Positions 30,767-50,628 of a DNA stretch of 64,000 bases are shown here, piece by piece. How positions within the stretch are numbered: the first letter of the stretch is position 1; every line of letters begins with the position of its first letter. The position numbers and the translations under genes were made by a program. The notes beneath the pieces were generated by a model. That model was not told the DNA's origin, searched no databases, and was given only the letters and a program-made list of their open reading frames with translations. Source of the DNA: Candidatus Undinarchaeota archaeon (GTDB lineage: Archaea; SpSt-1190; JASMDC01); assembly GCA_964519305.1 (NCBI GenBank), contig CAZFHY010000001.1, forward strand, positions 64,001-128,000, read 5' to 3'.

Positions 30767-32149
30767 CTACTCCAATCCCTTGTAGAACTTGAGGAACTTC
30801 CCGAACGAGCGGAGCAGGTGCCTTGCGTCACGCCCGCCACGGACACGCGCGGCCCTTCGAGCCATGAAGGCAGGATCGAGGTAGAAGGTCCGATAGGCCC
30901 AGGTCGTTGCCTGCTTGACGTCATCTGCCGTGAACTCTGGGCGAGAGAGATGCCCGGTCTCGTCCAACCAACCCTTTCGGACGGCCTGCGAGTAGAGAGG
31001 TGTGTCTGGATATGGGAGGATTGAGCGGAATATCGTGAAGTCGGATCCGACCTCTCTGACGAAGCTCACGGTACGGGCCACGCTCTCCCATGTCTCCCCG
31101 GGGAGTCCAACGATGATGAGCGCGCCTGCTGCGATCCCCGCCTCATGGACCGCGGAGAACGCGTTGCGTACCGTACCGAGGTCCACACCCTTCCCCGTGG
31201 AGCGAAGGATGTCAGGATCGGCGCTCTCCACACCTATGTCTATTCGGAAGCACCCTGCACGAGCCAGTGCCCCGGCGACCTCCTTGTCGAGACCATCCGC
31301 ACGGGCGGTGATGACCCAGTTCACGTCAAGGTCCCGTTCCTGAAGCTCACGAGCGATACCAAGGACACGGTCGCGATCGTGAAGGAAGTCCTCGTCTATC
31401 ACCCGGAACTCGCGGACACCCAGGCGTTCGCTGACCTCCTGGAACTCGTCGGCCACGTTCTCAGGGCTCCGTCCTCGCCATTCGCGACGTTTCGAGAAGC
31501 TCCGCGAGCAGAAGCTGCATCGATGGACGCATCCCCTGCTGGTGACCATGTTCGTGTAGTGCACGTCCTCCTTTACCAGATAGTGGATGTATCGATCGAG
31601 AGGGAATAGGTGCCTTGCGGGAAAGGGGAGAGTATCGAGGTCGGTATGCGGTCGATCAGGATTGACGATCGTCCGGCCACGGTCGCTCCAAACGAGCCCA
31701 TCGACGCGGGCCGGGTCCCAAGAGCCGGACAATAGGTCCGAGATCATTCCCTCATGATCATCGATCGAGATCGCATCGACTACGTCGAGCGCTCTCTTAT
31801 GAAGAGATGGACCGATGAGTCCCATGAGCACCAGCCTTGTGTCAGGAGCGACCTCCCGTATCGCCCGGGCGTCGGTCAGCACAGGCTCAATGGATGTCGA
31901 CGAGGCAGGTATCACGATGGCATCTGGGTCCTGCTGCTCAACTTGTCCGAGCACATCATCGAAGGGCGTCTGCAGTGCGTTAGCGTCCATGACGGATACC
32001 GAGCAACCGGACGCAAGGAGCGATGAAGCAACGGAGGCGAGGTTGACCGGGAACTCTACGACGTCCACGGGAGGTGTGTCGCCGAATAGTATGTCGCGGA
32101 ACTGGTAGCAGCCCTGCGGCGGTGGATTGAGGAGGAGGATGCCTCCCAT
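30767..32149 (-). CDS. B12-binding domain radical SAM protein
   Basis: LLLNPP, DLDTLPFPARHL, SRGCVHRCSFC, RSPENVADE, IGVES, IVGLPGET, PYPDTPLY. Confidence 0.9.
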   Translation of the reverse strand: MGGILLLNPPPQGCYQFRDILFGDTPPVDVVEFPVNLASVASSLLASGCSVSVMDANALQTPFDDVLGQVEQQDPDAIVIPASSTSIEPVLTDARAIREVAPDTRLVLMGLIGPSLHKRALDVVDAISIDDHEGMISDLLSGSWDPARVDGLVWSDRGRTIVNPDRPHTDLDTLPFPARHLFPLDRYIHYLVKEDVHYTNMVTSRGCVHRCSFCSRSFSKRREWRGRSPENVADEFQEVSERLGVREFRVIDEDFLHDRDRVLGIARELQERDLDVNWVITARADGLDKEVAGALARAGCFRIDIGVESADPDILRSTGKGVDLGTVRNAFSAVHEAGIAAGALIIVGLPGETWESVARTVSFVREVGSDFTIFRSILPYPDTPLYSQAVRKGWLDETGHLSRPEFTADDVKQATTWAYRTFYLDPAFMARRAARVRGGRDARHLLRSFGKFLKFYKGLE

Positions 32150-32236
32150 ATAGGAATGACTACGCATGAATCCTTATAACGGTTGCCTCAGGGAAACGCG
32201 GCCTTCCCCGAGCGTGTGGGAAGGCCGCGAATCCAC

Positions 32237-34493: not shown

Positions 34494-35477
34494 ATGAGGC
34501 TCAGGAACAAGGCCAGAGCGGGATGGGCAATACTCAAGGCCCACCTCTTCGGCACCAAGACTCCTGTCTCGGTCGTGCTCATGAGCAACGACTCGTGCAA
34601 CCTCAAGTGCAAATACTGTGCCATCTGGAAGACCAAGCGACGTCAGATGACCACCAAGGAGCTCCTTGACCTCGTGGACGAACTGGCTGACATGGGTTGC
34701 GTTCGCATATCCATCTTCGGTGGCGAACCGCTCGTCCGTGATGACATCGGTCAGATCGTCGACCATATCCATAAGCGCGGTATCAACGTCGGTCTGGGTT
34801 CGAACGGGATCCTCGTTCCCAAGAAGATCGACCAGTTGAAGGATCTGGACCATCTTCATATCAGTCTGGACGGTCCCGAGGACTACCATGATATCCAGCG
34901 CGGAAAGGGGAGCCATGCCTCGGCCATCCGTGCCATCAAGGCCGGGAAGAAGGCAGGTCTCACCGTATGGACTATGACCGTGCTCACCAAGCACAACCTC
35001 CAAGTGGTCGACTACATGCTGGATCTTGCTGACGAGCATGACATGATCGCCTACTTCCATCCGGTCTCTCCGCGGGCAGACTCTGGACCCTATGTAAAGG
35101 ACCTCGTCCCGCCGCTCGATGCATATCGAGCCACGATCGAGCTCATCCTCAAGCGTAAGGCCGAGGGACGGAGGGTGGGTAACTCAACGACTGCCCTGAA
35201 CTACTTCCTGCACTTCCCCAAGCAGACGATGGACTTCAGGTGCTGGGCAGGCAAGCTGTTCTGTCACATCGATGCGAACGGCGATGTGTTCGGGTGCCTG
35301 GAGAACAAGGACAAGTCTCCGCCCAACAACCTCCTTGACAAGGGATTCCGCAAAGCGTGGGACGAGATCACGAGAGGACCATGCCCGGGATGTTGGAGCT
35401 ATTCCACGTCCGACTTCAACTTCCTGTTCTCCCTCGAGCCCCATGTCATCTGGAACACCATCAAGCTGACCCGTTGA
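34494..35477 (+). CDS. Radical SAM protein with twitch/SPASM-like C-terminus
   Basis: CNLKCKYC, FGGEPL, ISLDG, CWAGKLFCHIDANGDVFGC, CPGC. Confidence 0.88.
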   Translation: MRLRNKARAGWAILKAHLFGTKTPVSVVLMSNDSCNLKCKYCAIWKTKRRQMTTKELLDLVDELADMGCVRISIFGGEPLVRDDIGQIVDHIHKRGINVGLGSNGILVPKKIDQLKDLDHLHISLDGPEDYHDIQRGKGSHASAIRAIKAGKKAGLTVWTMTVLTKHNLQVVDYMLDLADEHDMIAYFHPVSPRADSGPYVKDLVPPLDAYRATIELILKRKAEGRRVGNSTTALNYFLHFPKQTMDFRCWAGKLFCHIDANGDVFGCLENKDKSPPNNLLDKGFRKAWDEITRGPCPGCWSYSTSDFNFLFSLEPHVIWNTIKLTR

Positions 35478-38294: not shown

Positions 38295-39155
38295 TCACAG
38301 GAGTATAGGCCAATCCTGGGAGCGCTGGAAACGCCCCTCCGGAGGAGTGGCCTCAGGGGCGTCCTCCTTCTCCTCGATGACCCTCGGTTCTGCGTCGTAG
38401 ATATTGAAGAGGGCGTTGTAGGTGAGGTCACCCACTTCCGCGAGCTGGTCCGGGTTGTTGTTCTCGGGTTTATCATTTGGCGAGTGGATATCGGGGATTG
38501 AGTGCCCTTCCATGCGGCAGATAAAGGTGGCGTCGATCCCGGCCTTGATAAGGGCGGCCTGGTCGCTGGCACCGAAGCCGATGGAACGCTCCTCATAGGT
38601 GATGCCCATGGAGTCGGCGGTCTTCTCGATCTCCTCATTGATCCACGGGGTGGTCTTTCCGTAGTAGTCCTTGGTGATGATGACGAGGTCGGAGCCGTTA
38701 CCAATGCAGTCGAGGTTGACGGCACCCTTGATGTAGGACTTGTCCTCCTCGCTGAGAGAGGCCGCGTACTTGCGTGCACCGATGAGCCCCTTCTCCTCAA
38801 GACCGAAGGATGCGAACCTGATGTTGATCTTGGCCTCGTTGCGCACGAGCGCGTCGGCTAGCTCAAGGAGCATCACCGAGCCCGAACCGTTATCGTTGGC
38901 GCCAGGTGAGTTGGAAACGGTGTCGTGGTGGGCGCAAACGACAAGGTACTGGTCGGAGTCCGGGTCGCCGCGGTAGTCCGCGAACACGTTCTCGTCCTCG
39001 TTGGAGTACCAGCTGATGGGGGTCACTTCAGTGGCAAGGCCCAGCGCCTCGAACTGCTCGCGCATGTACTCACCACGTCCGGTGTTATCCTCTATCTCGC
39101 ATAGCTCGTAGAGATGGGCTATGGCCGCATCTCCATCTATAATACTCTCATACAT
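38295..39155 (-). CDS. M28 family metallopeptidase
   Basis: AHHD, GANDNGSG, FGLEEKGLIGA, NLDCIG, SDQ, IHSPND. Start trimmed to ATG 39155. Confidence 0.88.
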   Translation of the reverse strand: MYESIIDGDAAIAHLYELCEIEDNTGRGEYMREQFEALGLATEVTPISWYSNEDENVFADYRGDPDSDQYLVVCAHHDTVSNSPGANDNGSGSVMLLELADALVRNEAKINIRFASFGLEEKGLIGARKYAASLSEEDKSYIKGAVNLDCIGNGSDLVIITKDYYGKTTPWINEEIEKTADSMGITYEERSIGFGASDQAALIKAGIDATFICRMEGHSIPDIHSPNDKPENNNPDQLAEVGDLTYNALFNIYDAEPRVIEEKEDAPEATPPEGRFQRSQDWPILL

Positions 39156-39225
39156 AGCAGTATCCCCGTCAGCCAATTCCAGCAGGGTCCGATGCTTTAA
39201 TATCTTTCCCTCGAAAGGATAGACG

Positions 39226-39552
39226 ATGCCGAAGTTGACGTGCCCCGCCTGCGGGCACGGGTGCTGGGTGGAATCGAGACTGTTCACCATCGTCAAGTGC
39301 CCTCAGTGCGAGGACCCGTTCGTCGTTAGCGAACGGGATGGAGAGCTCGTGGCCCAACCGGCCTTGTGCACCGGGTGTGGAAAGGACACACACCCGGACC
39401 AACTTTCCCAGAGATGGGACTCAGGGTACGGCTGGGGCCTCTTGTGCCAAGAATGTCAGGAGGAATGGGACCGGGAGTTCCCGACAATGACACTTGAGGG
39501 CGCTGTCGCCCGGTTGCGAGAGGATAACGGGCTACCGAAATGGAGGGCGTGA
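39226..39552 (+). CDS. Small double zinc-ribbon protein
   Basis: Four CxxC pairs (CPAC, CPQC, CTGC, CQEC); TATA TTTAATAT at 39196; stop overlaps the next ATG (TGATG). Confidence 0.7.
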   Translation: MPKLTCPACGHGCWVESRLFTIVKCPQCEDPFVVSERDGELVAQPALCTGCGKDTHPDQLSQRWDSGYGWGLLCQECQEEWDREFPTMTLEGAVARLREDNGLPKWRA

Positions 39553-41876
39553 TGCCCCTGCGCGTTCACCGCGCACGAACGGTCGTGCTCGTCCTCCTCG
39601 TGTTGCTCGGGTGCGGTGCTGCGATCTCAGTGGACGGTACCTCCGAGGAATGGGACCATTCGAAGGCCGTGCAGGACCCTGCTGATGACACGCTCCTGGA
39701 CGTCCCAGGCCTCGACATAAGCTCGTTCTCCGTAGAGGTCGACAACGATACGGTCTACCTGATGGTCGGTACATGGTACCCGCTCCGTTCCGATGACCTC
39801 CTCCTAGAGCTAACTCTGGGGGATATGGTGTTGAACATTGACGGAAAAGGAGCGCGGTGGTGGCGGGACGGGACGGACTACCCGCCGGTCTGGATCGAGG
39901 AGGCCCAGGTGGCCTTCGACGAGGTCATCGAGCTGTCCATCCCTCGCTCGAAGGTACGGGGCGACCCGTTACATATCGAGCGCCTGAACCTCTGGGTCTC
40001 GGGTGACACCAGCGCGGCGGACGTGGCGGATGCCTGTCCCTTGAGTTTCGGAGAGCACCAAATCGCTCCCGTCCTCGCCGGGGTACATCAGGTCGACGGG
40101 CTCGCCAGCGAGTGGGGTGCGCCAATAGCACGTGACAGGGAGGGCGATGCTCCCGGACCGGACAGGGACATCTCTGCGATATACCTCGAGGTAGAGGGGG
40201 AGGACCTACATCTCGCCATGTCCACTGCAGGTGACAGTGTGCCGCTCAACGCCATGTTGGAGCTCACGCTCGGGGACGCAATCCTCAACATCGATCGAGA
40301 GGGAGTGCGTTGGTACGACAAGGGTACCGAGTTCCCGCCGCGGAAGCTCGAGGGGGCCGCGGTCGCCCTCGGCGAGCTGTTCGAGGTGAAGCTACCGATC
40401 GAGCACGTCCTCATAGGTGATGTGGTATACATCGAGCGCCTGAACCTCTGGACGGAGGGGCGTCCTGACGATCAGGGTGATTTCGCTCCATTGGCGTTCA
40501 ACACGACGACCAACACCATAGCCGATCCCGTCGCCTCCCTTTCCGTCGATATAAGACACGGAAAAGGCACCCATCTGGAGGTCAAGCTGACCGTCGAGGG
40601 TGCCGATGGCTTTGTGGACATGGGGTTCTTTCGTGGCACCTGCCCATTCGTCCGGCAACCGGCGGGAGGACGCGCTCGGGGCCGTGGGACATGTGGGTTC
40701 AGGATCACCCTCCCCTCCGCGCCCGTGTATTACACGGTCGACCTTGAGACCATTCAAGGGAGCGATCCGTTCGCACGGCTCGCTAACGATGTATGGGTCA
40801 TCCCGCTAGCGGTGCTGCTACCAGAAGTACGCAACGCCCGGATCTCCGAGGTGTCCCTGCACTTCGACCTACCGGATGGTTGGAACGCCGTTGCACCGAT
40901 GGTCCAGAACGAACCGGGGGTCTTTTTCGCACAGGGATTGCCGTTCACGGAGGTGCGGATGCTACGTGTCCTGCTCGGTCGGTTCGAGCGCTTGGACGAC
41001 AGGATAGAGGATGTGAGCTTCTCCCTCTTCCACGCAGGTATCCCTGCCGAACGCGTCAAGCTGTCCGTGGAGCGTATCAAGCGATACCTCCCCTATTGTC
41101 AGAAGGTGTTCGGTGAGTGGCCGGGTGGTGACCTCTCCGTTGTCGTCATCGGTCCACGCGATCCCTCATCAGGTTTCTGCCACGGGGTGGTCGAAGGTGG
41201 TATGGTGGTCGTCGACGCGCGACAACAGTGCAACGAGGAGGCTCACGAGGTCGTCCATCTCTGGATGATGGGCTCCATCCGCATCGCATCTCTCAAGGAC
41301 CGATGGCTCGGCGAAGGTGTGGCAGAGTACTATGGCCTCAAGACACGGCTGATGACCGATGAGTGGGACGAAGCGAGATTTCTCAGTGAACTGCGCGAGC
41401 GTGCAGCCCAGCCGCCAGGTTGGTACGTGGACCTCGTGAACGCCGGTGAACGGAGCGAGACCGATCCCCAGGCCGTCCAGGCCCTCTATGCAAAAGGTGC
41501 ACTTGCCATCTACCTGCTAGATAAGGAGATGGTCGAAAAGACGGGGGATGTGCGTGGGCTCGACCTCCTCATGCAGCGCCTGTACAATGAGTATGGACGA
41601 ACCGGACGGGCGGTCACGACGAGCGATGTCATCGAAGAGGCATCGTCCATAGTGGGCGAGGACCTAGGGCCGTTCATCCGGGCCCTGCTCGACGGCACAG
41701 CGCCGATCCCGGAAGAGCTAACTCCCTCCCTGGCAGCCGTGAAGGCCGATCCTAGTGACGAGAGGTGCGAGATAGAGCTGGCCCGACTCCAGAGGCGGGA
41801 ACGTTCGCTGCTCGTACTGCTCGCCCTACTCGCAGTATTCGCACTTCGGAGAGGCCGACAGGTGAGCGAGGACTAG
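39552..41876 (+). CDS. Membrane-anchored secreted gluzincin (M1/M61-like) with duplicated N-terminal domain
   Basis: Signal peptide; two similar ~150-aa domains (VDG..EW, LELTLGD, IERLNLW; 21-nt identity at 39975 and 40431); AHEVVHLW...WLGEGVAEY...YAKGAL; C-terminal TM plus RRGR. Confidence 0.85.
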   Translation: MPLRVHRARTVVLVLLVLLGCGAAISVDGTSEEWDHSKAVQDPADDTLLDVPGLDISSFSVEVDNDTVYLMVGTWYPLRSDDLLLELTLGDMVLNIDGKGARWWRDGTDYPPVWIEEAQVAFDEVIELSIPRSKVRGDPLHIERLNLWVSGDTSAADVADACPLSFGEHQIAPVLAGVHQVDGLASEWGAPIARDREGDAPGPDRDISAIYLEVEGEDLHLAMSTAGDSVPLNAMLELTLGDAILNIDREGVRWYDKGTEFPPRKLEGAAVALGELFEVKLPIEHVLIGDVVYIERLNLWTEGRPDDQGDFAPLAFNTTTNTIADPVASLSVDIRHGKGTHLEVKLTVEGADGFVDMGFFRGTCPFVRQPAGGRARGRGTCGFRITLPSAPVYYTVDLETIQGSDPFARLANDVWVIPLAVLLPEVRNARISEVSLHFDLPDGWNAVAPMVQNEPGVFFAQGLPFTEVRMLRVLLGRFERLDDRIEDVSFSLFHAGIPAERVKLSVERIKRYLPYCQKVFGEWPGGDLSVVVIGPRDPSSGFCHGVVEGGMVVVDARQQCNEEAHEVVHLWMMGSIRIASLKDRWLGEGVAEYYGLKTRLMTDEWDEARFLSELRERAAQPPGWYVDLVNAGERSETDPQAVQALYAKGALAIYLLDKEMVEKTGDVRGLDLLMQRLYNEYGRTGRAVTTSDVIEEASSIVGEDLGPFIRALLDGTAPIPEELTPSLAAVKADPSDERCEIELARLQRRERSLLVLLALLAVFALRRGRQVSED

Positions 41877-42796
41877 AGAAGTGTATCGCGGGACACAGGC
41901 GTGCCCTGGACCGGGATGAGCTCGTCCGTACCGAAACGCTCGGCGTATTCGCGCCACACGCCTTCACAGATCAGGTTGTACCTGCACACATGACATTGCG
42001 GCCCCTTACGCTTGTCATCCTCTCTGCGTGACCGCCTGTACTCACGCTCCACACGCCCAGGCTCACGCACCTCGCACGAGGCCATATGCAGCTCGATGGC
42101 CTGTTGCTTATGGTCCGGCATGAGACAGTAGGGTATGGCTTCATAGAAGGCAGGGATCCCCGCAGAGGTGGTCACGTCCAGGGCCTCGGCCACGTACCTG
42201 GCCGCCTGGGATATGACTGGGACTATGGTGTCCGCTTCGACTTCAGCGTTGCCCATGGGATGGACGAAGTCGAACTGCATGGAGTCCGGCCCGAATTCGA
42301 TAAGGAACCTCGCGATGTCAGGGAGCACTGCATAGTTCGGTTTCGCGACCACCGTATTGGTGATGACGGTCAGCGGGGCATCGCACACGTTACGCAGCCC
42401 CGCGATGGCCTGGTCAAAAGCGCCCGGCGATTTGGTGAGGTGATCATGGAGCGCGGCCACGTGCCCATGGACGGCCGGTACAACCTGGGTGAGGCCCGCG
42501 GCAACAAGGTCGTTCACGAGGTCACGATAACTGAGCATCCGGGCATTCGTCTGGAGCTGGACATCGCGATAGCCTAGACGATGCGCCATGGTGATTATGT
42601 CGACAAGTTTGGGGTCAAGGGTGGGCTCGCCACCCGTGATCACGAGGAAGTCGGCACCATCAGCTCGACCTGCGCGAAGGTCACCCTCAACATCTGTTAG
42701 GTTCTTGGACCTGCGGCCCCGCTTGTCAGCTACAGCACAGAAGCGGCAGTTATTGTTACAGCTGTAGCCCAATTTTAGGTCTAAACGATGCACCAT
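41873..42796 (-). CDS. HxsC-like radical SAM maturase (paralog 1)
   Basis: CNNNCRFC, TGGEPT, QTN, EAIPYC, C-terminal CHVCRYNLICEGVW; starts 25 nt after the precursor stop. Confidence 0.85.
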   Translation of the reverse strand: MVHRLDLKLGYSCNNNCRFCAVADKRGRRSKNLTDVEGDLRAGRADGADFLVITGGEPTLDPKLVDIITMAHRLGYRDVQLQTNARMLSYRDLVNDLVAAGLTQVVPAVHGHVAALHDHLTKSPGAFDQAIAGLRNVCDAPLTVITNTVVAKPNYAVLPDIARFLIEFGPDSMQFDFVHPMGNAEVEADTIVPVISQAARYVAEALDVTTSAGIPAFYEAIPYCLMPDHKQQAIELHMASCEVREPGRVEREYRRSRREDDKRKGPQCHVCRYNLICEGVWREYAERFGTDELIPVQGTPVSRDTLL

Positions 42797-42821
42797 CTGT
42801 CGCTACTAGTCCCCGTCCGGC

Positions 42822-43160
42822 TTAATGGCTGTTGCAGTGAGACCCGTGCGAGGTATGGCTGTCGTGGTTCGAGTGGGCAGGGTCGTAGTGGGAGTGCACA
42901 GCCTTTATGGTCGAACCGGAGTAGTGGATTCCCGCAGCGCTCTGAGAGTGATCGTACGGGTTGTTGGTATGCGACGCATGTGAACTGTGGCTGCCATGGC
43001 TCGTATGCCAACTTGTCGCTGGTTTGGCTATGAGGCTGGAGAACGCATAGCCCGACAGGATGGCCCCCATGGAAAACAGATTTCTCTTTGTGATCCTGCC
43101 CTCCTCCTCTACGAGGAAGGACTTGATGCTTTTCTGAATCTTTGGTAGTGTCTTTGTCAT
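42822..43160 (-). CDS. hxsA: His-Xaa-Ser repeat RiPP precursor (HxsA-like)
   Basis: WHTSHGSHSSHASHTN and HSNHDSHTSHGSHCNSH blocks; GGAGTGA ribosome-binding site; flanked by HxsB/C/D-like genes. Confidence 0.9.
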   Translation of the reverse strand: MTKTLPKIQKSIKSFLVEEEGRITKRNLFSMGAILSGYAFSSLIAKPATSWHTSHGSHSSHASHTNNPYDHSQSAAGIHYSGSTIKAVHSHYDPAHSNHDSHTSHGSHCNSH

Positions 43161-43214
43161 CGTTGATCACTCCAGCTAGTACTCACTCTCTGTTACATAC
43201 TATAGATTAGCTAG

Positions 43215-43222
43215 CTTATAAA
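43215..43222 (-). promoter_or_regulatory. TATA box (TTTATAAG) for the precursor gene
   Basis: Lies in the AT-rich 96-nt gap between the hxsB stop and the hxsA start. Confidence 0.55.
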
Positions 43223-43256
43223 CCTATCGTCGGCTTAAAAGGCATCCGGTACCCCT

Positions 43257-44684
43257 TTAGTCAAGCGTTCTCGCCCATTCGAGAAGGATCGAGCGGTCCT
43301 TTGGATCCACGATGATTTTATGGAATAGGTGCTCAACGAGCCCGCCCCGTATCGCGCATTCCTTATCCATGGGGAGCTTGGACACCAGATTCCCTTGGGA
43401 ACCATAGGTGCAAACGGCACACGAGCCGCAATAGGGGTGCCAGATACAGGTGTCGCACATGGTGCATACATGGGATGTCAGCCCCACGAGGTGTTGGACC
43501 TGAGGTGAGGTGAACACTCCCTTGTAAGTATCATCCCGCACATTGCCGATGCGGAATATATCGAAGGAACGTGATTCATCACATGCGTAGATATCGCCGT
43601 CCTGGGTATAGGCCACCTGGTTGAGGGCCGCACCGCAGGGTGAACCGAAGCACGTGTACGTAGAGGCTTTCAAGCACAGGATCTTACGCAGAACGATCGT
43701 GGCCATGTTCTCATGCATGCGCACGCCCTGTCGGTTGAGGTCGATTATGTACTCGAGCGTGTCCTTGTAGAAGCGCATGAACTCGTCGGCGGAGTAGCCC
43801 ACCTCTTTCCATCGCTCGGCTGCGAACCCTGCGTCATTGAGCTGGCGGATCCGGATGTTGGGGAAGCCCCATTTCACGTACTCGTCGACGATCTCCTTTC
43901 CGTACGAAAGGGAGTGCTTCGAGATGGTCGGAAGAGCTGAGAGGCCTACATGCTTGATGTTGCGGATGCGGTTGATCCAGTAGGTGACATTCTCGTATGA
44001 ACCAGCGCCACCAAAGTACCGTCGGTTCGCGTCGTGGACCTCCTCGGGCCCGTCCAGTGATGTGCAAAGGCCGAACCTGTTGGAGGCAAGATAGTCGAGC
44101 TTGTCGTCCGTCATCAGGGAGAGGTTGGTGACCATGAGGAAGGTCATCCGCTTCTTCTTGAGATGGGCCTGGTCCTTGGCGTACTCGGTTATGTAGTGGA
44201 CCATGTCGAACGCCGCCAGAGGCTCACCCCCCTGGAACTCGAGTGTAAGGTCCCGGCCAGGAGACTGCATGATGAAGTCCACCGTAGCACGGGCGGTCTC
44301 CTCGTCCATGTCCACGCCTGTCGTATCCATGGGGCGGGATTTCGCATGACAATAGACACAGGTGAAGTTGCACCGCAGGGTGGGGACCACTATGTGGAGC
44401 ACGACGCCACGGTCGAGGTGGGCGAAGCGACTGCGATATTGCTCTGCCAGTCCGTCCATGTCATCTTCATGCACCATGACACCGATACCACGGAGCGTGA
44501 GCATCAGGTTCGGGTCCTCGGTGATGCGGCCTAGTCGAAGGAGATCGTACTCACGCTTGGTAAGAACCGCCCACGAACCATGATCCGCGGTGATCAGGTA
44601 CTTGTCCTTCGCCAAACGCTTCGTCTGATAGCGGTTGATGAGGTGCGGTCCCTCGCTGAGTCCCTCAAAGAAGGTCTCTACCAT
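43257..44684 (-). CDS. hxsB: His-Xaa-Ser system radical SAM/SPASM maturase HxsB
   Basis: LHIVVPTLRCNFTCVYCHA, LEFQGGEPL, TSLDGPEEVHDANR, SPCGAALNQVAYTQDGDIYACDE, CDTCIWHPYCGSCAVC. Confidence 0.9.
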   Translation of the reverse strand: MVETFFEGLSEGPHLINRYQTKRLAKDKYLITADHGSWAVLTKREYDLLRLGRITEDPNLMLTLRGIGVMVHEDDMDGLAEQYRSRFAHLDRGVVLHIVVPTLRCNFTCVYCHAKSRPMDTTGVDMDEETARATVDFIMQSPGRDLTLEFQGGEPLAAFDMVHYITEYAKDQAHLKKKRMTFLMVTNLSLMTDDKLDYLASNRFGLCTSLDGPEEVHDANRRYFGGAGSYENVTYWINRIRNIKHVGLSALPTISKHSLSYGKEIVDEYVKWGFPNIRIRQLNDAGFAAERWKEVGYSADEFMRFYKDTLEYIIDLNRQGVRMHENMATIVLRKILCLKASTYTCFGSPCGAALNQVAYTQDGDIYACDESRSFDIFRIGNVRDDTYKGVFTSPQVQHLVGLTSHVCTMCDTCIWHPYCGSCAVCTYGSQGNLVSKLPMDKECAIRGGLVEHLFHKIIVDPKDRSILLEWARTLD

Positions 44685-44688
44685 GCAT

Positions 44689-44931
44689 CTACGCCTTCAT
44701 GATGCCGAGCACGTAGTTCAGGAACTCATAACCGAGCTGGTTGATCCTGATCTTCTTGCTCCGTGGAGTGAGGGTCACTCGCACGAGGCCTTCAGCATCT
44801 CCATCAACGTACACCCAGCAGGTCTCGAGATAGGCCTGGGAGGCCTGCATTACCGCGTCCATCGGATAGAAACGGGTATCAAGGTCGAGCACGACGGTCC
44901 TGAGATCCTTATCGACAGTGACGATCTTCAT
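44689..44931 (-). CDS. HxsD-like protein (short copy)
   Basis: LDTRFYPMDAVMQASQAYL...YEFLNYVL; clearly paralogous to the adjacent HxsD. Confidence 0.75.
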   Translation of the reverse strand: MKIVTVDKDLRTVVLDLDTRFYPMDAVMQASQAYLETCWVYVDGDAEGLVRVTLTPRSKKIRINQLGYEFLNYVLGIMKA

Positions 44932-44934
44932 GCG

Positions 44935-45420
44935 CTACTCCTCCGTTCCGCTCCAGGGCTTGGCGATCCCTTCAGGATCATCCCTGTACGAGGAGTCTCC
45001 CTCTGATGGAGGGCACCCGCACGGATCGGCGCCGGAGTCGGCGCTCTCGCTGGTCAGGAATGCGCGGCGCACGATGGCGTCCCGCACGTCCTGGTTCCGC
45101 GCTGTCTGGATCGTGTAGACCGCGTAGTTGATGAGCTCGTTGTTGAACTCTCTACCGAGCTTCTCGAGGCTCTCCCGCTTGCTCTTCGGCCGGATCTCCA
45201 CAAGGACCTCTTCCTGCGGATCACCGCCGAGGATCAGGTACGCCCTGTCCATGAGGACATAGGCTGCTGAGTAGATGATCTGGAGCGGATAGATCCGGGG
45301 ATTCACGGATACGAGTATATACCCCTCCTTTTTGTGAATCTCGAGATTATTGATCACGCTAAAACCCTCGTTCGGGTCTTTCTTCGATTCTGGTTTTTTC
45401 TTCGTCGCACGCTTAGCCAT
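44935..45420 (-). CDS. hxsD: His-Xaa-Ser system protein HxsD-like
   Basis: VNPRIYPLQIIYSAAYVLMDRAY...REFNNELINYAVY...VRDAIVRRAF, with DDPEGIAKPW near the C-terminus. Start trimmed to ATG 45420. Confidence 0.82.
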   Translation of the reverse strand: MAKRATKKKPESKKDPNEGFSVINNLEIHKKEGYILVSVNPRIYPLQIIYSAAYVLMDRAYLILGGDPQEEVLVEIRPKSKRESLEKLGREFNNELINYAVYTIQTARNQDVRDAIVRRAFLTSESADSGADPCGCPPSEGDSSYRDDPEGIAKPWSGTEE

Positions 45421-45456
45421 GGAACGCACCCCGGAAGGCCGGAAGGCCTTGCAAAG

Positions 45457-45465
45457 CTTTAATAG
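45457..45465. promoter_or_regulatory. Candidate bidirectional TATA (CTTTAATAG) between the two arms of the Hxs cluster
   Basis: Most TATA-like box in the 110-nt gap between ATG 45420 (-) and ATG 45531 (+). Confidence 0.45.
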
Positions 45466-45530
45466 TTTGCGCTCGGCCTTTCCCATTGCCTGCTCTTCCT
45501 ATGCTGGCCTCTCGTTTGGATGTTTTGGCG

Positions 45531-46463
45531 ATGGGGATCAAGAGACTTGATTTGAAGGTTGGATTCGCCTGTAACAACAACTGCCGGTTCTGTGTCGTCG
45601 CCGACAAGCGGAGGCTCGGGAACCTGAGCACAGGACAGCTCAAGGAGAACATCGTTAACGGCGCCCGCTCGGGTGCCAAGGAGATCGTCTTCACTGGTGG
45701 TGAGGTCACCCTCCGCAAGGACCTTCTGGAACTCATCCGGTTCGCCAAGAACCAAGGTTTCACAAGGCTCCAGCTCCAGTCGAACTGTAGGATGCTGTTC
45801 TACAAGGATTTCATCCACAAGCTCCTTGACGCCGGTATCAATGAGTTCTCCCCTTCGATCCATGGATCGACCCCCGAGGTGCATGATGGTCTAGTTCGCG
45901 CTCCCGGCGCATACAAGCAGACGCTGGGCGCCATCCGTAACCTCGTCGACATGGACCTCCGAGTACTCACGAACACGGTCATCACACGTCAGAACTACGA
46001 GCAGCTGCCCCAGATTGCCCAGATACTCATCGATATCGGTGTCATGCAGTACCAGTTCGCCTTCGTACATGCGGAGGGGAACGCCTACAAGTACTTTGAC
46101 GAGATAGTCCCCCGGAAGTCGGTGATACAGCCCTATGTCCACAAGGGCGTGGATCTGGGAGCGGAGTCCGGTACATCGATGATGGTAGAGGCCTACCCGT
46201 TCTGCTTCATGGTGGATCGGGAGCAGTACTGCTCTGAGCTATTCATCCCCGAGACCGAGGTCCGCGAGGCCGATCGCGTTCTTGAGAACTTCAGTGATGT
46301 CCGTCGGAACGTCGCCAAGCTCAAAGGCCCGGACTGTCCTCGATGCAGATACTACCCTATCTGCGAAGGACCATGGAAGGAGTATCCCGAGAAATTCGGA
46401 TGGGAAGAGTTCGTGCCAGTGCCCGGTCAGCCCATCACCGATCGGCTAGAACTGCTCCACTGA
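45531..46463 (+). CDS. HxsC-like radical SAM maturase (paralog 2)
   Basis: RLDLKVGFACNNNCRFCVVADKR (close to paralog 1), TGGEVT, EAYPFC, CPRCRYYPICEGPW. Confidence 0.85.
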   Translation: MGIKRLDLKVGFACNNNCRFCVVADKRRLGNLSTGQLKENIVNGARSGAKEIVFTGGEVTLRKDLLELIRFAKNQGFTRLQLQSNCRMLFYKDFIHKLLDAGINEFSPSIHGSTPEVHDGLVRAPGAYKQTLGAIRNLVDMDLRVLTNTVITRQNYEQLPQIAQILIDIGVMQYQFAFVHAEGNAYKYFDEIVPRKSVIQPYVHKGVDLGAESGTSMMVEAYPFCFMVDREQYCSELFIPETEVREADRVLENFSDVRRNVAKLKGPDCPRCRYYPICEGPWKEYPEKFGWEEFVPVPGQPITDRLELLH

Positions 46464-46472
46464 GGGGCCATC

Positions 46473-47441
46473 ATGGCGACCCACCTTTTACGGCTAGGCC
46501 ATTCCTGTGACCACGCATGCCGCTATTGCACCGTGGCGGACGATCCCGATCCAGAGCTCTCCCGGGAGGATGCGCTGGCCCGCGTCGATGCAGTGCCCAA
46601 GGGCGAGGGATTGACCATCACCGGTGGAGAACCTACTCTGCACCCCGACCTACTGGAGATAGTCCGGCGGGCGAAGGAGCGGGGACTCTTCCCCGTTGAC
46701 CTCCAGACGCACGGAGCGCACCTGTGCGATGCATCCCTGGTGGAGCGTCTACAGGAAGCGGGGCTCGATATAGCCCTTGTGTCCGTACCGTCACATGAGA
46801 AGAAGGTCTATCACGAGCTCACCGGCAAGGACGACCTTGACAAAGTACTGGCCGGTATCAGCGCGCTCCTGGAGGTCGGTATCGAGACGAACATAGACCA
46901 CGTCATCACAGCACGCACTTACCGTTCCCTCCCGGACTTCGTAGACGTCATCGGCAAGCGATTCCCGGGGGTCAACCGTATCCTCCTTGGGATGGTGCGG
47001 CCCAATGGAGCATGCGCCCGGCATCCCGAGCTGGTTCCCCGTCTGGTAGAGCTGGAACCTTTCCTGTATGATGCGCTGGACCGCCTTCGGAACAGGCGCG
47101 CGTACTACGAGGTGGAAGGTGTGCCCTTGTGCTATCTTCAGGGATACGAGCATCATAACGCTGAGACGCAGCGCGCCCTTGACGCCCCTGTTTCCTACGC
47201 TGGAGGTAAGCGGCGGCGCGATATCCACGGATTCGTGCATTCCCAGTTGAAACGCAAAGCGGCCGTATGTGAGCGCTGCCTTCTGGACCCGCTCTGTGTA
47301 GGGGTGTGGGTGGAGTATGCCCAGCTCAACGGGACGAACGAACTGTTCCCGGTGTTCACTCCACCGGACCGTGTGCGTGAACGGATGGAACGGTACTATC
47401 AGCGATGGAGGGAGGAGTATCGTAGACGTAGGTCTAGGTAA
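46473..47441 (+). CDS. HxsC-like radical SAM maturase (paralog 3)
   Basis: CDHACRYC, TGGEPT, EGVPLC, CERCLLDPLCVGVW. Confidence 0.85.
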   Translation: MATHLLRLGHSCDHACRYCTVADDPDPELSREDALARVDAVPKGEGLTITGGEPTLHPDLLEIVRRAKERGLFPVDLQTHGAHLCDASLVERLQEAGLDIALVSVPSHEKKVYHELTGKDDLDKVLAGISALLEVGIETNIDHVITARTYRSLPDFVDVIGKRFPGVNRILLGMVRPNGACARHPELVPRLVELEPFLYDALDRLRNRRAYYEVEGVPLCYLQGYEHHNAETQRALDAPVSYAGGKRRRDIHGFVHSQLKRKAAVCERCLLDPLCVGVWVEYAQLNGTNELFPVFTPPDRVRERMERYYQRWREEYRRRRSR

Positions 47442-48258
47442 CGCATGCAACAACTCGTGCGTCATGTGCACTTCCATCATGCCGCCTCCTAAGGACGTGG
47501 ATCCCACCACCGAGCAGATCAAAGCCCATATCAATGGGCTCGATGAGCCGGACATCATCATCTTCACCGGCGGCGAACCGACCCTCCGCCCCGACCTCGA
47601 GGAACTCGTCCGATATGTACGCCAGCGGTTCCCGGACACTCCGTTCAGGCTCCTCACGAACGGTCGGATGTTCTCCTATCGTGACTACACAGAAAGGATG
47701 GTATCGGCTGGAGTCGATGACGTCGAAGTATCGCTCTGCGGACCCTCCGCCGAGGTGCACGATGCAGTGACCCGCGCACCAGGCTCTTTCATCCAGTCGC
47801 TCGAAGGCATCCGGAACCTCGTGTCGGCAGGAGTGCATACGAACGTGCGCTACGTGCTCCATGAGCTCACCTACAAGAGCGTGGTCGACGTCCCGGACCT
47901 TCTGGACAGGGAAGCGCCGGGCATAGGGCAGCTGGTCGTCATGTATATGGACATAATCGGTAACGCCCTGCGCCACCGGAAGCAGCTCATCGTCCCGTAC
48001 AGGGATGTCGCACCCTACGTGGAGCGCACCGCTGATGTCGCTGTCGAACGGGGGATATCACTGGCCTTGTACCATATACCGTCCTGTGTCATCGCCCCTG
48101 CCTACCGTCATCTCTCAGCGGGCGTCACCGTCATCGAGCGACGCATCACCTATCCACCCCAATGCGAGCGATGTACCGTCCGAAGCTCGTGCTGTGGTGT
48201 GTGGAAGACCTATACCAAGGACGTGGGCGTAGATGAGTTCGTCCCGGTCATCGAATGA
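47377..48258 (+). CDS. hxsC: Radical SAM maturase most similar to canonical HxsC (paralog 4; start uncertain)
   Basis: CNNSCVMCTSIMPP, TGGEPT, LLTNGRMFS, MYMDIIGNA, LYHIPSC, CERCTVRSSCCGVW. Confidence 0.8.
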   Translation: MNGWNGTISDGGRSIVDVGLGNACNNSCVMCTSIMPPPKDVDPTTEQIKAHINGLDEPDIIIFTGGEPTLRPDLEELVRYVRQRFPDTPFRLLTNGRMFSYRDYTERMVSAGVDDVEVSLCGPSAEVHDAVTRAPGSFIQSLEGIRNLVSAGVHTNVRYVLHELTYKSVVDVPDLLDREAPGIGQLVVMYMDIIGNALRHRKQLIVPYRDVAPYVERTADVAVERGISLALYHIPSCVIAPAYRHLSAGVTVIERRITYPPQCERCTVRSSCCGVWKTYTKDVGVDEFVPVIE

Positions 48259-48270
48259 TATGACCGCTGT

Positions 48271-50628
48271 CTAGAGGCCCTCATCACCGAATATGTCCGC
48301 ATCCTCTTCTTCCTTGTCGGATGAGGTCTCGTCAGCGGTTTCCTTCGTCCCCTCATCCCCCGCCCCGGGGGCTGCCGGGTAGCGGCCTGCCGACGGGTAG
48401 CGGCCCGCGTAGGCGTCCTTTGGACCGGCCTCTTTATCCCCTCGGTGGTAATGGGCCGGTCGCGCCATCTTGGCACGAGCGTAGTAGCCCGCTTCCTCCT
48501 CCGAGCTCTCGTCCTTGAAGTGGTCCACCAACTCGCTGATTAGTCCGGTGATCATCTCCTTCTTCTCACCGAACACGGTCACATAGATCACACCAAGCCC
48601 CAGGTCCATGCGCACCCAGATGCCCAGGAACTTCTTGGAGTAGGCGCCCATCCCCGAGTAGATCAGGTCCACGGATCGCTTCTCCTTGTTCACCAGCTGC
48701 TTGACCGTGTGGATGCCTGAGAACCGCTCCGCGATACGCTTGATCGCCTCCTTGGGAGGGATGGTGAGCTCGATGGTCTGCTGGTTCGACTCAAGCTCGG
48801 TGATCCTCTTCTTGAACGTTATGGTGTCCATCGGCACACCTACGAGGAACGGACACACGCTCCCCACGTTTATTGGATCGAACTCCTCCATCTTACGCTC
48901 TCCGCGGTTGTCATGGTAGACGACAGTACCACCGATCTTGGCGTTAACGCACCGGTGTGGGATGAGCAGGAAGATGGCCGACTGGAACTCATCCGGTTTG
49001 ATGGCCCCTAGAGAGATTAGCTTCGAGCCGTGCTCCACCTCGAAGGCCTCCGGTACGTCGAGGTTCACATCCACGTCGGTTATGGAGAAGGTGGAATGGT
49101 TATGTACCTTGATGCCGATCTTGATGTGGTTACCCTCACGTGTGACACCCCGCATGATATCGACCTCCTCGTGACCGATCACACGCTTCTTGGCGAACTG
49201 GAGGCCTAGGTAGATAATACCCATGAGACCGAATATGTCGATCCACTCAGTAACGGCATCGAGCATGTTCAGGTCGAGCTTCTCCTCCATGTTACCGATC
49301 TCCACCTCGGCAAGGTTCATGTCGCTCTGGGCCTTGCATTCCTTCATGATGGTCTCGATCTTCGTCATGGAGGCGTTGAACCGTAAGGCGTCGTCGTCAG
49401 TGACGCGGAACATCACTCGCCAGACACTGCTCTTGAGGTTCGTGTCGTACATCTGGAGAACGTTGTAATACCGGTCCTTCAGCTCGACCGGTACGGTGCA
49501 GTCCTCCGAGGAGATGAGCTTGCGAACGGCTTCCAGCTCGTCAGGATTGCTGGCCACCTCGGTGGAATTACCATAGAAGAGCCTGACGTTCTTGAGCACG
49601 GGTGTGCAGAACCCATCCGAGGAGAAGAGGGCCTTGTACTGTATCCAGCGGTCGCCGATGTGGAGGCTGTTCACCCCGGAGGGCGATATCGTGTAGTGGT
49701 CTGTATTCTTATCGGGACCGAGCCACGTCGCATCCTCCAGCTCTATCTCGGTACGCGCGCTCCGGGTCTGGAGATTGATCGTGCACGGTGAGGGCGTATC
49801 CTTATCCCACGAAATCGTGGTGTAGACCGCGTCGGGCATCCCAGTATCGAACGGAGGTGACAGGAGCGTTCCCTGATTGATCCGCTTCATCTGCTTTCCA
49901 CTTGCGATATGTAAGGTCTTCATATAGAGCTTCGCAGGTCGCTCACGGGTACCGGTAGTAGATATCCTGATCGAGTTGACCTGGCTGCCGCTTTGCGTCC
50001 CCCGCAGTGCGTCACCGTGGGAAAGGAGTCGGATACCATCGCGGTAGACATTGAAGCTGGCCGAGACACCGACGAACATGATTCGCCATGTATGGTAGTT
50101 CTCCGTATCGGTCTTGCCCTCCCACTGACGGAAGCGCCGGTCCTGATTGTCAACCATGTCGATACCACTTCCATGGAACACGAAGCATGGACCACGGACC
50201 ACGGCATGGACGCAGATCCTCAGACCGCCCTGTTCTTCCATCCTGAACGTGGTCTCCAGGGTCCAATCGCTCTTGTCGGGTATGGACTCTGACCTGACGA
50301 TCATCGGATTTACCTTATCATTGCCATCATAGATGAACAATGTACCAGGTGGATCGACATCGATCACGGCCTTGACGTCATGCTGGTTCCGCTCCCATCC
50401 ATCCAGTGAAGGCCAGTTCGTGGAAAAAATGTTCCAGAGGGGGGTTTCGAAGTCAAGACGCACGGAGCCGTCAGGACCGGGAGTTGTCACATTGGAACGC
50501 GTGGTCAACAGGAAGTCATCGAGTGTATCAGTGTTCCAGATCCTGCCGGAGGCCATGGTGAGGGCTAGGAATAGAACGAGCACGATCCATCGTGCAGGGA
50601 GCCTGCTCGGGAGAATTCCCTCTACCAC
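48271..50628 (-). CDS. Single-pass membrane protein: large extracellular region, TM, and a cytoplasmic Ig-like plus platform domain resembling an adaptin appendage
   Basis: Signal peptide; TM WIDIFGLMGIIYLGLQF; then IKIGIKVHNHSTFSITDV...LGAIKPDEFQSAIF...CPFLVGVPMDTITFKK...; acidic tail. Confidence 0.75.
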   Translation of the reverse strand: MVEGILPSRLPARWIVLVLFLALTMASGRIWNTDTLDDFLLTTRSNVTTPGPDGSVRLDFETPLWNIFSTNWPSLDGWERNQHDVKAVIDVDPPGTLFIYDGNDKVNPMIVRSESIPDKSDWTLETTFRMEEQGGLRICVHAVVRGPCFVFHGSGIDMVDNQDRRFRQWEGKTDTENYHTWRIMFVGVSASFNVYRDGIRLLSHGDALRGTQSGSQVNSIRISTTGTRERPAKLYMKTLHIASGKQMKRINQGTLLSPPFDTGMPDAVYTTISWDKDTPSPCTINLQTRSARTEIELEDATWLGPDKNTDHYTISPSGVNSLHIGDRWIQYKALFSSDGFCTPVLKNVRLFYGNSTEVASNPDELEAVRKLISSEDCTVPVELKDRYYNVLQMYDTNLKSSVWRVMFRVTDDDALRFNASMTKIETIMKECKAQSDMNLAEVEIGNMEEKLDLNMLDAVTEWIDIFGLMGIIYLGLQFAKKRVIGHEEVDIMRGVTREGNHIKIGIKVHNHSTFSITDVDVNLDVPEAFEVEHGSKLISLGAIKPDEFQSAIFLLIPHRCVNAKIGGTVVYHDNRGERKMEEFDPINVGSVCPFLVGVPMDTITFKKRITELESNQQTIELTIPPKEAIKRIAERFSGIHTVKQLVNKEKRSVDLIYSGMGAYSKKFLGIWVRMDLGLGVIYVTVFGEKKEMITGLISELVDHFKDESSEEEAGYYARAKMARPAHYHRGDKEAGPKDAYAGRYPSAGRYPAAPGAGDEGTKETADETSSDKEEEDADIFGDEGL

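Follow-up and report, generated by a model that had tools for sequence, protein, structure and literature searches.

The closest described counterpart of the locus reported here is the His-Xaa-Ser (Hxs) system, which was proposed from comparative genomics by Haft and Basu (as cited in PMC9062424) and has so far been studied experimentally only in Escherichia coli. According to the cited sections of that work (Li et al., Nat Commun 2026, PMC13128918), E. coli needs HxsB, HxsC and HxsD for the N-terminal processing of HxsA, for a +8 Da modification in one HxS repeat and for the periplasmic accumulation of HxsA; the experiments led to a model of cytoplasmic maturation followed by export, in which a periplasmic, peptidoglycan-anchored protein blocks the entry of phage DNA. 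The same sections assign 99.7% of Hxs systems to Pseudomonadota, with a gene order that is mostly D-B-C-A (PMC13128918). Here, we analyze a 64,000-nucleotide (nt) stretch of DNA from a Candidatus Undinarchaeota archaeon (hereafter the window; positions 64,001 to 128,000 of contig CAZFHY010000001.1, assembly GCA_964519305.1), and within it a small gene for a His-rich precursor peptide surrounded by genes for radical S-adenosylmethionine (SAM) enzymes. Based on homology and gene context, this precursor is an HxsA-type substrate of the Hxs radical-SAM system and not a new class of peptide; an earlier note, made from the letters of the window, had missed that the system already has a name.

What the query locus shares with E. 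coli HXS, as the latter is described in the cited sections of PMC13128918, is a tandem HxS substrate behind an N-terminal hydrophobic signal, a SPASM-type HxsB, radical-SAM enzymes of HxsC type (in the query below the curated cut-offs) and a small HxsD. The differences concern the host (archaeal), the gene order (D-D-B-A-C plus three divergent HxsC paralogs, compared with D-B-C-A), the number of genes (four HxsC-like and two HxsD-like) and the substrate, which has 112 amino acids (aa), no peptidoglycan-binding domain, one K/R in the core and no TIGR03979 match. What is new is thus an archaeal (Undinarchaeota) Hxs variant with four HxsC-type and two HxsD-type paralogs and without a peptidoglycan-binding domain, and new within this variant are a core nearly devoid of basic residues, a first block specific to the genus, a spacer that is conserved and a C-terminal Cys. 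The literature searched for Hxs terms, and for Undinarchaeota together with 'radical SAM', contained no description of an archaeal Hxs system, and the names HxsA3, HxsA4 and HxsC4 were not found in it.

The translation of the precursor open reading frame (ORF) is exactly the one given in the earlier note (112 aa, ATG at 43160), and since this ATG is the third codon past an in-frame stop, the start is not in doubt. Residues 1-26 contain seven K/R and three D/E (net +4), and the core one K/R and three D/E. All 15 His fall within the last 62 residues, at positions between 52 and 112 and mostly at a spacing of three, and the previously reported count of eight HxS triads (HTS52, HGS55, HSS58, HAS61, HYS79, HDS99, HTS102, HGS105) and three HxN triads (HTN64, HSN96, HCN108) is borne out; by composition-preserving shuffling of the 62-residue core, 11 triads were reached in 10 of 100,000 trials (mean 4.5). 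No other tandem HxS ORF occurs in the 3.63 Mb genome, and near-identical proteins carry the label Candidatus Undinarchaeales archaeon. Against NCBIfam, the precursor matched HxsA3 (NF038309) over residues 5-73 with 49.8 bits (E 2.2e-13), which is under the curated, equivalog-level cut-off of 65; it had no match to the canonical HxsA (TIGR03979) at E<=0.01, no Pfam domain and, in particular, no peptidoglycan-binding domain. The query has the same N-terminal motif, helix and repeat layout as HxsA3 and HxsA4 (NF038313) and departs from them in its two-block core, its HSHYDPAH spacer and its C-terminal Cys. While all ten high-ranking representatives scanned (P0058 to P0110) pass the HxsA3 cut-off, the query and the eight Undinarchaeota- or Micrarchaeia-type relatives scanned remain below both cut-offs.

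The neighbouring genes point in the same direction (Table 1). An hxsB gene lies directly upstream of the precursor and scores above its family cut-off, the small protein D1 passes the cut-off of HxsD_rel (NF038315), and four HxsC-like enzymes (Ca, Cb, Cc and Cd) complete the cluster. The four paralogs reached 177.8, 91.1, 87.4 and 66 bits against TIGR03977 (HxsC, cut-off 267.9) and 181, 177, 117.7 and 74 bits against NF038332 (HxsC4, cut-off 500). For Ca, Cb and Cd the top NCBIfam match was HxsC or HxsC4; for Cc the top-listed match was archaeal MoaA (75.0 bits), tied with HxsC4 (74.3). Orthologs of Cb were present at 44-53% identity in all related clusters. The proposal that the peptide is a radical-SAM substrate, with a core that follows a signal-peptide-like segment, is supported.

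The organization of the leader was inspected across the precursor family. A homolog search gave 13 proteins at E<=0.01 among 31 candidates, and with a profile made from 16 precursors the number of cluster representatives recovered was 816 at a threshold of E<=1e-3, falling to 250 for E<=1e-10 and to 7 for E<=1e-30; the family counts given throughout refer to the best 150 of these 816. An uncharged stretch of at least 12 residues with a 15-residue hydropathy of at least 1.6 was found in 149/150 (the sole exception being the query's own cluster), a K or R at most three residues before this helix in 147/150, and an EEEG-like acidic motif ahead of it in 123/150. Hence, the basic residue and the hydrophobic helix are near-universal, and the refutation named in the earlier note (homologous leaders without these two features) does not hold. 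In the query, T24-K25-R26 leads into the sole hydrophobic stretch of the precursor, residues 27-45 (Kyte-Doolittle means of 1.29 for 19 residues and 1.48 for 15), after which comes K46-P47-A48-T49-S50; the N-flank of the helix has a charge of +3 (R22, K25, R26), and the C-flank in the family is acidic. The first HxS follows the helix at a median distance of five residues, and the consensus before the first His reads D/E(-5), A/V(-4; 121/150), F/Y(-3), A(-2; 131/150) and A/K/G(-1), a small-x-small pattern from which cleavage is predicted one residue ahead of the first His. The query segment A48-T49-S50-W51-H52 is in the same register as this A/V-x-A site, and the cleavage point formerly placed between PATS and W coincides with it.

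Taken together, these alignments support a bipartite leader, composed of a putative maturase handle and a Sec-type signal peptide with a predicted cut between S50 and W51. The features of a Sec-type (signal peptidase I) substrate are all present, namely a K25-R26 n-region, an h-region (27-45) and small residues at A48-x-S50. The N-terminal motif is 26 residues long, includes an invariant acidic patch and is conserved over hundreds of clusters; it greatly exceeds the n-region of a usual signal peptide in both length and conservation, and is most likely a handle for the maturases. We consider it probable that the precursor is an HxsA-type Hxs substrate with a two-part leader of 50 residues, modified in the cytoplasm and subsequently exported and cut. 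Residues 5-26 (LPKIQKSIKSFLVEEEGRITKR) would be held by the cytoplasmic maturases, HxsB and the HxsD proteins, while HxsB and the four HxsC-like enzymes would modify the H-x-S/N triads in the cytoplasm. Residues 27-45, together with A48-T49-S50, would act as the Sec-type signal peptide (h-region plus small-x-small site), so that the core would cross the membrane N-in/C-out and be cut after S50, and a 62-residue His-rich peptide (W51-H112) would be left outside the cell. The sequence of events advanced in the earlier note (modification in the cytoplasm, then export) is the same as the one proposed for E. coli HXS in the cited sections of PMC13128918, and by analogy may apply here. By homology with E. 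coli HXS, the peptide would act at the cell envelope, where it could possibly keep viruses from entering, with metal binding as the main alternative function.

Table 1. Features of the Hxs locus and its flanks (positions in the window)
Feature	Position	Strand	Basis and remarks
hxsA-like precursor gene, 112 aa + stop	42822..43160	(-)	Translation; NCBIfam NF038309 HxsA3 match
Residues 1-26, N-terminal leader with conserved motif LPKIQKSIKSFLVEEEGRITKR	43083..43160	(-)	Alignments; putative handle for the maturases, and n-region
Residues 27-45, hydrophobic h-region NLFSMGAILSGYAFSSLIA	43026..43082	(-)	Kyte-Doolittle
Residues 46-50, c-region K-P-A-T-S	43011..43025	(-)	Register with family consensus; predicted signal-peptidase cut after S50
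Residues 52-66, block 1, HTS-HGS-HSS-HAS-HTN	42963..43007	(-)	Genus-specific; nearest relatives outside the genus lack it
Residues 67-95, spacer with conserved Y-S-G-S-T-I-K-A-V-H-S-H-Y-D-P-A	42876..42962	(-)	Invariant in 8/8 genus-level variants
Residues 96-112, block 2, HSN-HDS-HTS-HGS-HCN-SH including Cys109	42825..42875	(-)	Common to relatives
Gap of 96 nt between precursor and upstream hxsB	43161-43256	(-)	TTTATAA at 43216-43222; GGAGTGA at 43167-43173
hxsB, radical SAM/SPASM maturase, directly upstream of precursor	43257..44684	(-)	TIGR03978 424.7 bits, cut-off 370
D1, HxsD-like protein, 80 aa	44689..44931	(-)	NF038315 (HxsD_rel) 43.2 bits, cut-off 41
D2, HxsD paralog, likely start ATG 45420	44935..45486	(-)	TIGR03976 48.5 bits, cut-off 50; ortholog alignment
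Ca, HxsC4-like radical SAM enzyme, 25 nt downstream of precursor	41873..42796	(-)	NF038332 181 bits; TIGR03977 91.1 bits
Cb, HxsC4-like radical SAM enzyme, divergent from D2, likely start ATG 45531	45486..46463	(+)	NF038332 177 bits
Cc, HxsC-like radical SAM enzyme	46473..47441	(+)	NF038332 74.3 bits; TIGR03977 66 bits
Cd, HxsC-like radical SAM enzyme	47317..48258	(+)	TIGR03977 177.8 bits, cut-off 267.9
M28 peptidase	38295..39296		Just outside the cluster
Putative membrane-anchored peptidase, HExxH, 778 aa	39540..41876	(+)	Weak M1/M61 likeness; just outside the cluster

The models of the maturases bear on the proposed handle. By sequence, the nearest solved structure to HxsB is the SCIFF maturase 5wgg (E 8.2e-26), and the HxsB model aligned with it from residue 17 to 461 (chain residues 1-450; Z 24.8, 385 residues aligned, root-mean-square deviation 4.7), as well as with 8vpo (Z 21.4; residues 10-460). 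The top match of the model, anSME (an enzyme with leaderless substrates; Z 27), aligned from residue 92 only, so that HxsB appears to possess an extra N-terminal domain such as is found in leader-binding maturases. In 5wgg this N-domain is, we presume, a leader-binding recognition element (RRE) for ribosomally synthesized and post-translationally modified peptides (RiPPs). Binding of the leader to HxsB or to an HxsD protein may be envisaged. After HxsB itself, the best NCBIfam matches were thioether-forming maturases (PapB with 156.8 bits, QhpD and SCIFF). The likeness to SCIFF/CteB-type SPASM maturases, which are closest by sequence and to which the model aligned from the N-terminus, does not extend to the substrate: that of the query is His/Ser-rich with a single Cys, and its leader carries a signal peptide as well. 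A PqqD/RRE-like or secretion-chaperone-like fold was also considered for HxsD and found no support, as the D2 model (mean predicted local distance difference test, pLDDT, of 71.8) gave no Foldseek match in the PDB at E<=0.001 and its best VIA Z (7.4) was within the range of chance arrangements.

Several observations weigh against this account. The precursor and all four HxsC-like enzymes score below their curated cut-offs, which leaves room for a chemistry other than that of canonical Hxs, and as the core has no peptidoglycan-binding domain and a single K/R, the electrostatic DNA-binding model may not carry over. The confidence of the HxsB model is modest (mean pLDDT 63; 53 to 87 across the N-domain blocks), and the cut after S50 is predicted solely from the register and the -3/-1 rule. 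The h-region of the query is, furthermore, the least hydrophobic of the 150 (1.48 compared with a median of 2.41), and this, K46 in the c-region and K-R before the helix are all traits reminiscent of twin-arginine translocation (Tat), for which the genome encodes TatA and TatC.

Export through Tat, proposed in the earlier note on account of a KR variant of the twin-arginine motif (T24-K25-R26-N-L-F), would let a modified and possibly cross-linked peptide leave via TatAC; we think this route unlikely. Tat suits substrates that are modified before export. The tatC (170.7 bits) and tatA (64.2 bits) genes are adjacent on contig C3 of the genome, the weakly hydrophobic (1.29-1.48), Gly/Ser/Ala-rich h-region resembles those of the canonical RRxF signals of this genome, K46 is located in the c-region, and the query genus has lost the M50-like protease of its relatives (described below), so the route could have changed. 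With Tat signal peptides the leader has in common a long n-region, a weakly hydrophobic h-region, a basic c-region residue and a small-x-small site; its motif is, however, K-R instead of R-R and is conserved in no relative outside the genus. Within the family, RR was found in 0/150 and KR in 1/150, the latter being the query's own cluster, whereas R-x-K is the common form (96/150) and the dibasic forms RK and KK occur in 7/150 and 17/150. At the position of K25/R26, K-E or K-Q stands in each of the 10 precursors listed from metagenome relatives outside the genus, the small-genome Undinarchaeota (family f4) read D-K-N-K, and the position is part of a conserved leader motif, I-[TS]-[KR]-x-x-L. 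Plausible Tat signals elsewhere in the genome use RR: a crude motif scan of 11,407 ORFs gave 250 RR and 68 KR matches, which are noisy and often in spurious frames, and which show that canonical RRxF signals exist. The case for a Tat-like signal is consequently weak.

Less probable still, in our judgement, is a signal anchor, in which the helix would escape signal peptidase and the core would be either tethered outside or freed by a membrane protease acting within the membrane. Conserved positions in the helix (G at -18 in 116/150 and G/S at -11 in 102/150) exceed the needs of a bare h-region, and a membrane protein of 180-190 residues with an M50-like HExGH motif (Pfam M50, 28.1 bits vs 27.2) directly follows the precursor in the metagenome loci L031, L032, L033 and L036, its H, E, G and H being invariant in 4/4. 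This linkage supports a membrane-embedded helix in the family. Nevertheless, the A/V-x-A site is strongly conserved, the query helix falls short of a stable anchor in length and hydrophobicity, and the query genome yielded no homolog of the M50-like protein (tblastn, E<=1e-3, 3.63 Mb), nor did five small-genome loci or the seven remaining metagenome loci, several of these being too short for a verdict. The earlier statement that there is no dedicated peptidase is qualified by the close relatives that carry the M50-like protease right after the precursor. At the query locus, the cluster genes at 41873-48258 gave no match to an ABC transporter or a peptidase family, and scanning the ORFs of at least 120 residues between 29.8 and 57.3 kb gave no ABC transporter and an M28 peptidase as the sole peptidase-family match. 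The 778-aa HExxH protein beside it has an N-terminal signal and a C-terminal anchor, and its weak M1/M61 likeness comes from Pfam (E 0.0054), the PDB (E 0.0037) and an atlas score of 0.84; it is conserved within the genus only, and its gene converges on Ca, the stop codons overlapping by 4 nt.

That the precursor is an ordinary cytoplasmic RiPP, with a helix that belongs to the recognition leader only and a product released by a general protease outside any signal pathway, is highly improbable: many RiPP leaders are indeed helical and no exporter gene was found in the cluster, but nearly all family members show the n-/h-/c-region arrangement with A/V-x-A, HxsA of E. coli is periplasmic and the precursor is linked to an M50-like membrane protease in relatives.

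Other membrane proteases and membrane proteins were noticed as well. In L031 the M50-like gene (10406-10987) is followed by a conserved 190-aa Cys-rich membrane protein and then by a 628-aa second SPASM enzyme, and all three are absent from the query genome. An A24 (prepilin-peptidase-type) membrane protease is encoded directly upstream of HxsD in two distant relatives, L031 (6707-7807) and L041 (5136-6119), and a homolog is found in the query genome outside the cluster (C5:1472-2509). A class III (prepilin-type) signal, considered since this A24 peptidase adjoins HxsD in two relatives, was set aside, as no K/R-G/A site immediately precedes the helix of the precursor, whose n-region has 26 residues.

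Turning to the core, it had been suggested that the HxN triads, or the two blocks, are substrates of different maturases. The spacer segment I-x-A-x-HSHYDPAH and block 2 are common to the query and the nearest precursors outside the genus (40-42% identity), and alignment showed block 1 to be absent from the latter. Across eight genus-level variants all His and the entire spacer are invariant, changes fall at the middle triad position, and S and N are exchanged at residues 54 and 110 (the third position of a triad) between near-identical variants. Moreover, the nearest single-block relatives have the larger clusters, and thus carry more maturases than the two-block query (seven radical-SAM genes in the single-block L031 vs five in the query). 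Judging from these comparisons, the two blocks do not look like distinct substrate classes, nor do the HxN triads, and the suggestion is not supported. Cys109 (window 42834-42836) has counterparts in every Undinarchaeota- or Micrarchaeia-type precursor seen, each with at least one Cys within or just past its final repeats; in the family, 32/150 have any Cys beyond the helix. Two relatives have tandem precursor copies (L032, 2141-2533 and 3147-3509; L034, 2-283 and 287-679), and in a small-genome relative (L026, 9256-10536) a precursor with leader, helix and HxS repeats is fused to a C-terminal domain of ~300 residues, amounting to 426 aa in total.

The precursor gene had also been credited with its own expression signals. 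Gaps of 3-4 nt lie between D2, D1 and HxsB, 96 nt separate HxsB from the precursor, and Ca follows the precursor after 25 nt. A TATA-like TTTATAA is located at -62 to -56 from the precursor ATG and a Shine-Dalgarno-like GGAGTGA at -13 to -7. The TTTATAA heptamer occurs four times, at three places, in the window (0.52 expected) and 178 times in the genome (both strands), 57 of these in the 120 nt that precede any of 2,428 crudely called gene starts, with a peak at -40 to -21. Genome-wide, gene starts are preceded by an AT-rich peak at -35 to -25, as is typical of leaderless archaeal genes; the arrangement at the precursor, with TTTATAA further upstream and then GGAGTGA, fits a putative leadered transcript that has a ribosome-binding site. 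The middle of the gap and its TTTATAA are conserved in the sister genome (two sequences only). Thus, both signals are present, TTTATAA is rare, promoter-associated and kept in the sister genome, and a separate promoter is plausible in silico. In small-genome relatives, however, the gap between HxsB and the precursor is estimated at roughly 26-35 nt, so such a promoter would be at most a trait of the query lineage. Folding of the 96-nt gap gave a z of 0.24, with no sign of a structured RNA or terminator, and a sigma-70 and terminator scan found nothing near the precursor gene, although these bacterial models are not applicable to an archaeon.

The distribution of the cluster was assessed in the phylum and in metagenomic loci. 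The sister genome carries the same cluster, and HxsB-like genes were detected (E<=1e-40) in 10/17 genomes of the phylum, comprising 8/10 genomes of a family with 0.6-0.9 Mb genomes and 0/5 in two other families; an HxsB scan of the genome collection gave one close relative only. The precursor adjoins HxsB in 6/6 loci fetched, with three to four HxsC-like genes where the contig allows. The nearest relatives (one nearest precursor outside the genus is labelled Micrarchaeia) keep the D2-D1-HxsB-HxsA order together with orthologs of Ca, Cb, Cc and Cd. The L031 cluster comprises the A24 peptidase, D2, D1, HxsB, HxsA, the M50-like protein, the 190-aa protein and the second SPASM enzyme, then Cb, Ca, Cc and a further Ca, and finally a DUF362 ferredoxin and Cd. 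More generally, the archaeal Hxs clusters have a single HxsB, between three and five HxsC and either one or two HxsD, and some add a second SPASM enzyme, an M50-like protease or a DUF362 ferredoxin. The DUF362 protein, which has two 4Fe-4S ferredoxin motifs and is encoded among the HxsC paralogs in L031 (17236-18351), L033 and L034, could be an electron donor for the radical-SAM enzymes; its best homolog in the query lies outside the cluster. As for genome size, the query (3.63 Mb; 99.8% complete, 4.3% contamination) and its sister (3.8 Mb) differ from the 15 other genomes of the class (0.6-1.2 Mb), which reflects either a large-genome lineage within a phylum noted for tiny genomes or a binning problem.

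We reason that the locus extends the interest of Hxs beyond E. coli, since the same logic is present in archaea without peptidoglycan, with a much smaller substrate, an expansion of paralogs and a leader that would merge a conserved enzyme handle with an export signal. It offers a compact system for asking how a radical-SAM-modified peptide stays in the cytoplasm until modified and then enters export, and what the individual HxsC paralogs do, while the retention in 8/10 genomes of the 0.6-0.9 Mb family raises the question of whether the function is defence or something more basic. A PADLOC 2.0 scan for defence systems gave nothing beyond generic radical-SAM (viperin) matches. It is conceivable, albeit doubtful, that the multi-enzyme cluster is a retained DPANN-type envelope module which makes a heavily modified, secreted His-rich peptide, rather than an accessory defence island, and that a switch of export to Tat in the query genus is marked by its acquired block 1, its K-R motif and its lost M50-like protein. 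Were this so, the peptide would have a role of its own (e.g., metal capture, host contact or a standing antiviral coat), and the module would be retained by genomes as small as 0.6-0.9 Mb.

Rfam and tRNA scans of the window gave no match. Outside the cluster, the window holds two further radical-SAM genes, at 30767-32167 (-) and 34494-35477 (+), one with a B12-binding domain and one mycofactocin-maturase-like, and the Hxs cluster is flanked by a 785-aa protein without a family match (48271-50628, -). Giant Cys-rich proteins of surface type are encoded beside the Hxs clusters of two small-genome relatives, with more than 1,800 residues in L026 (1-5484, -) and more than 2,600 residues in L027 (10176-18002, +).

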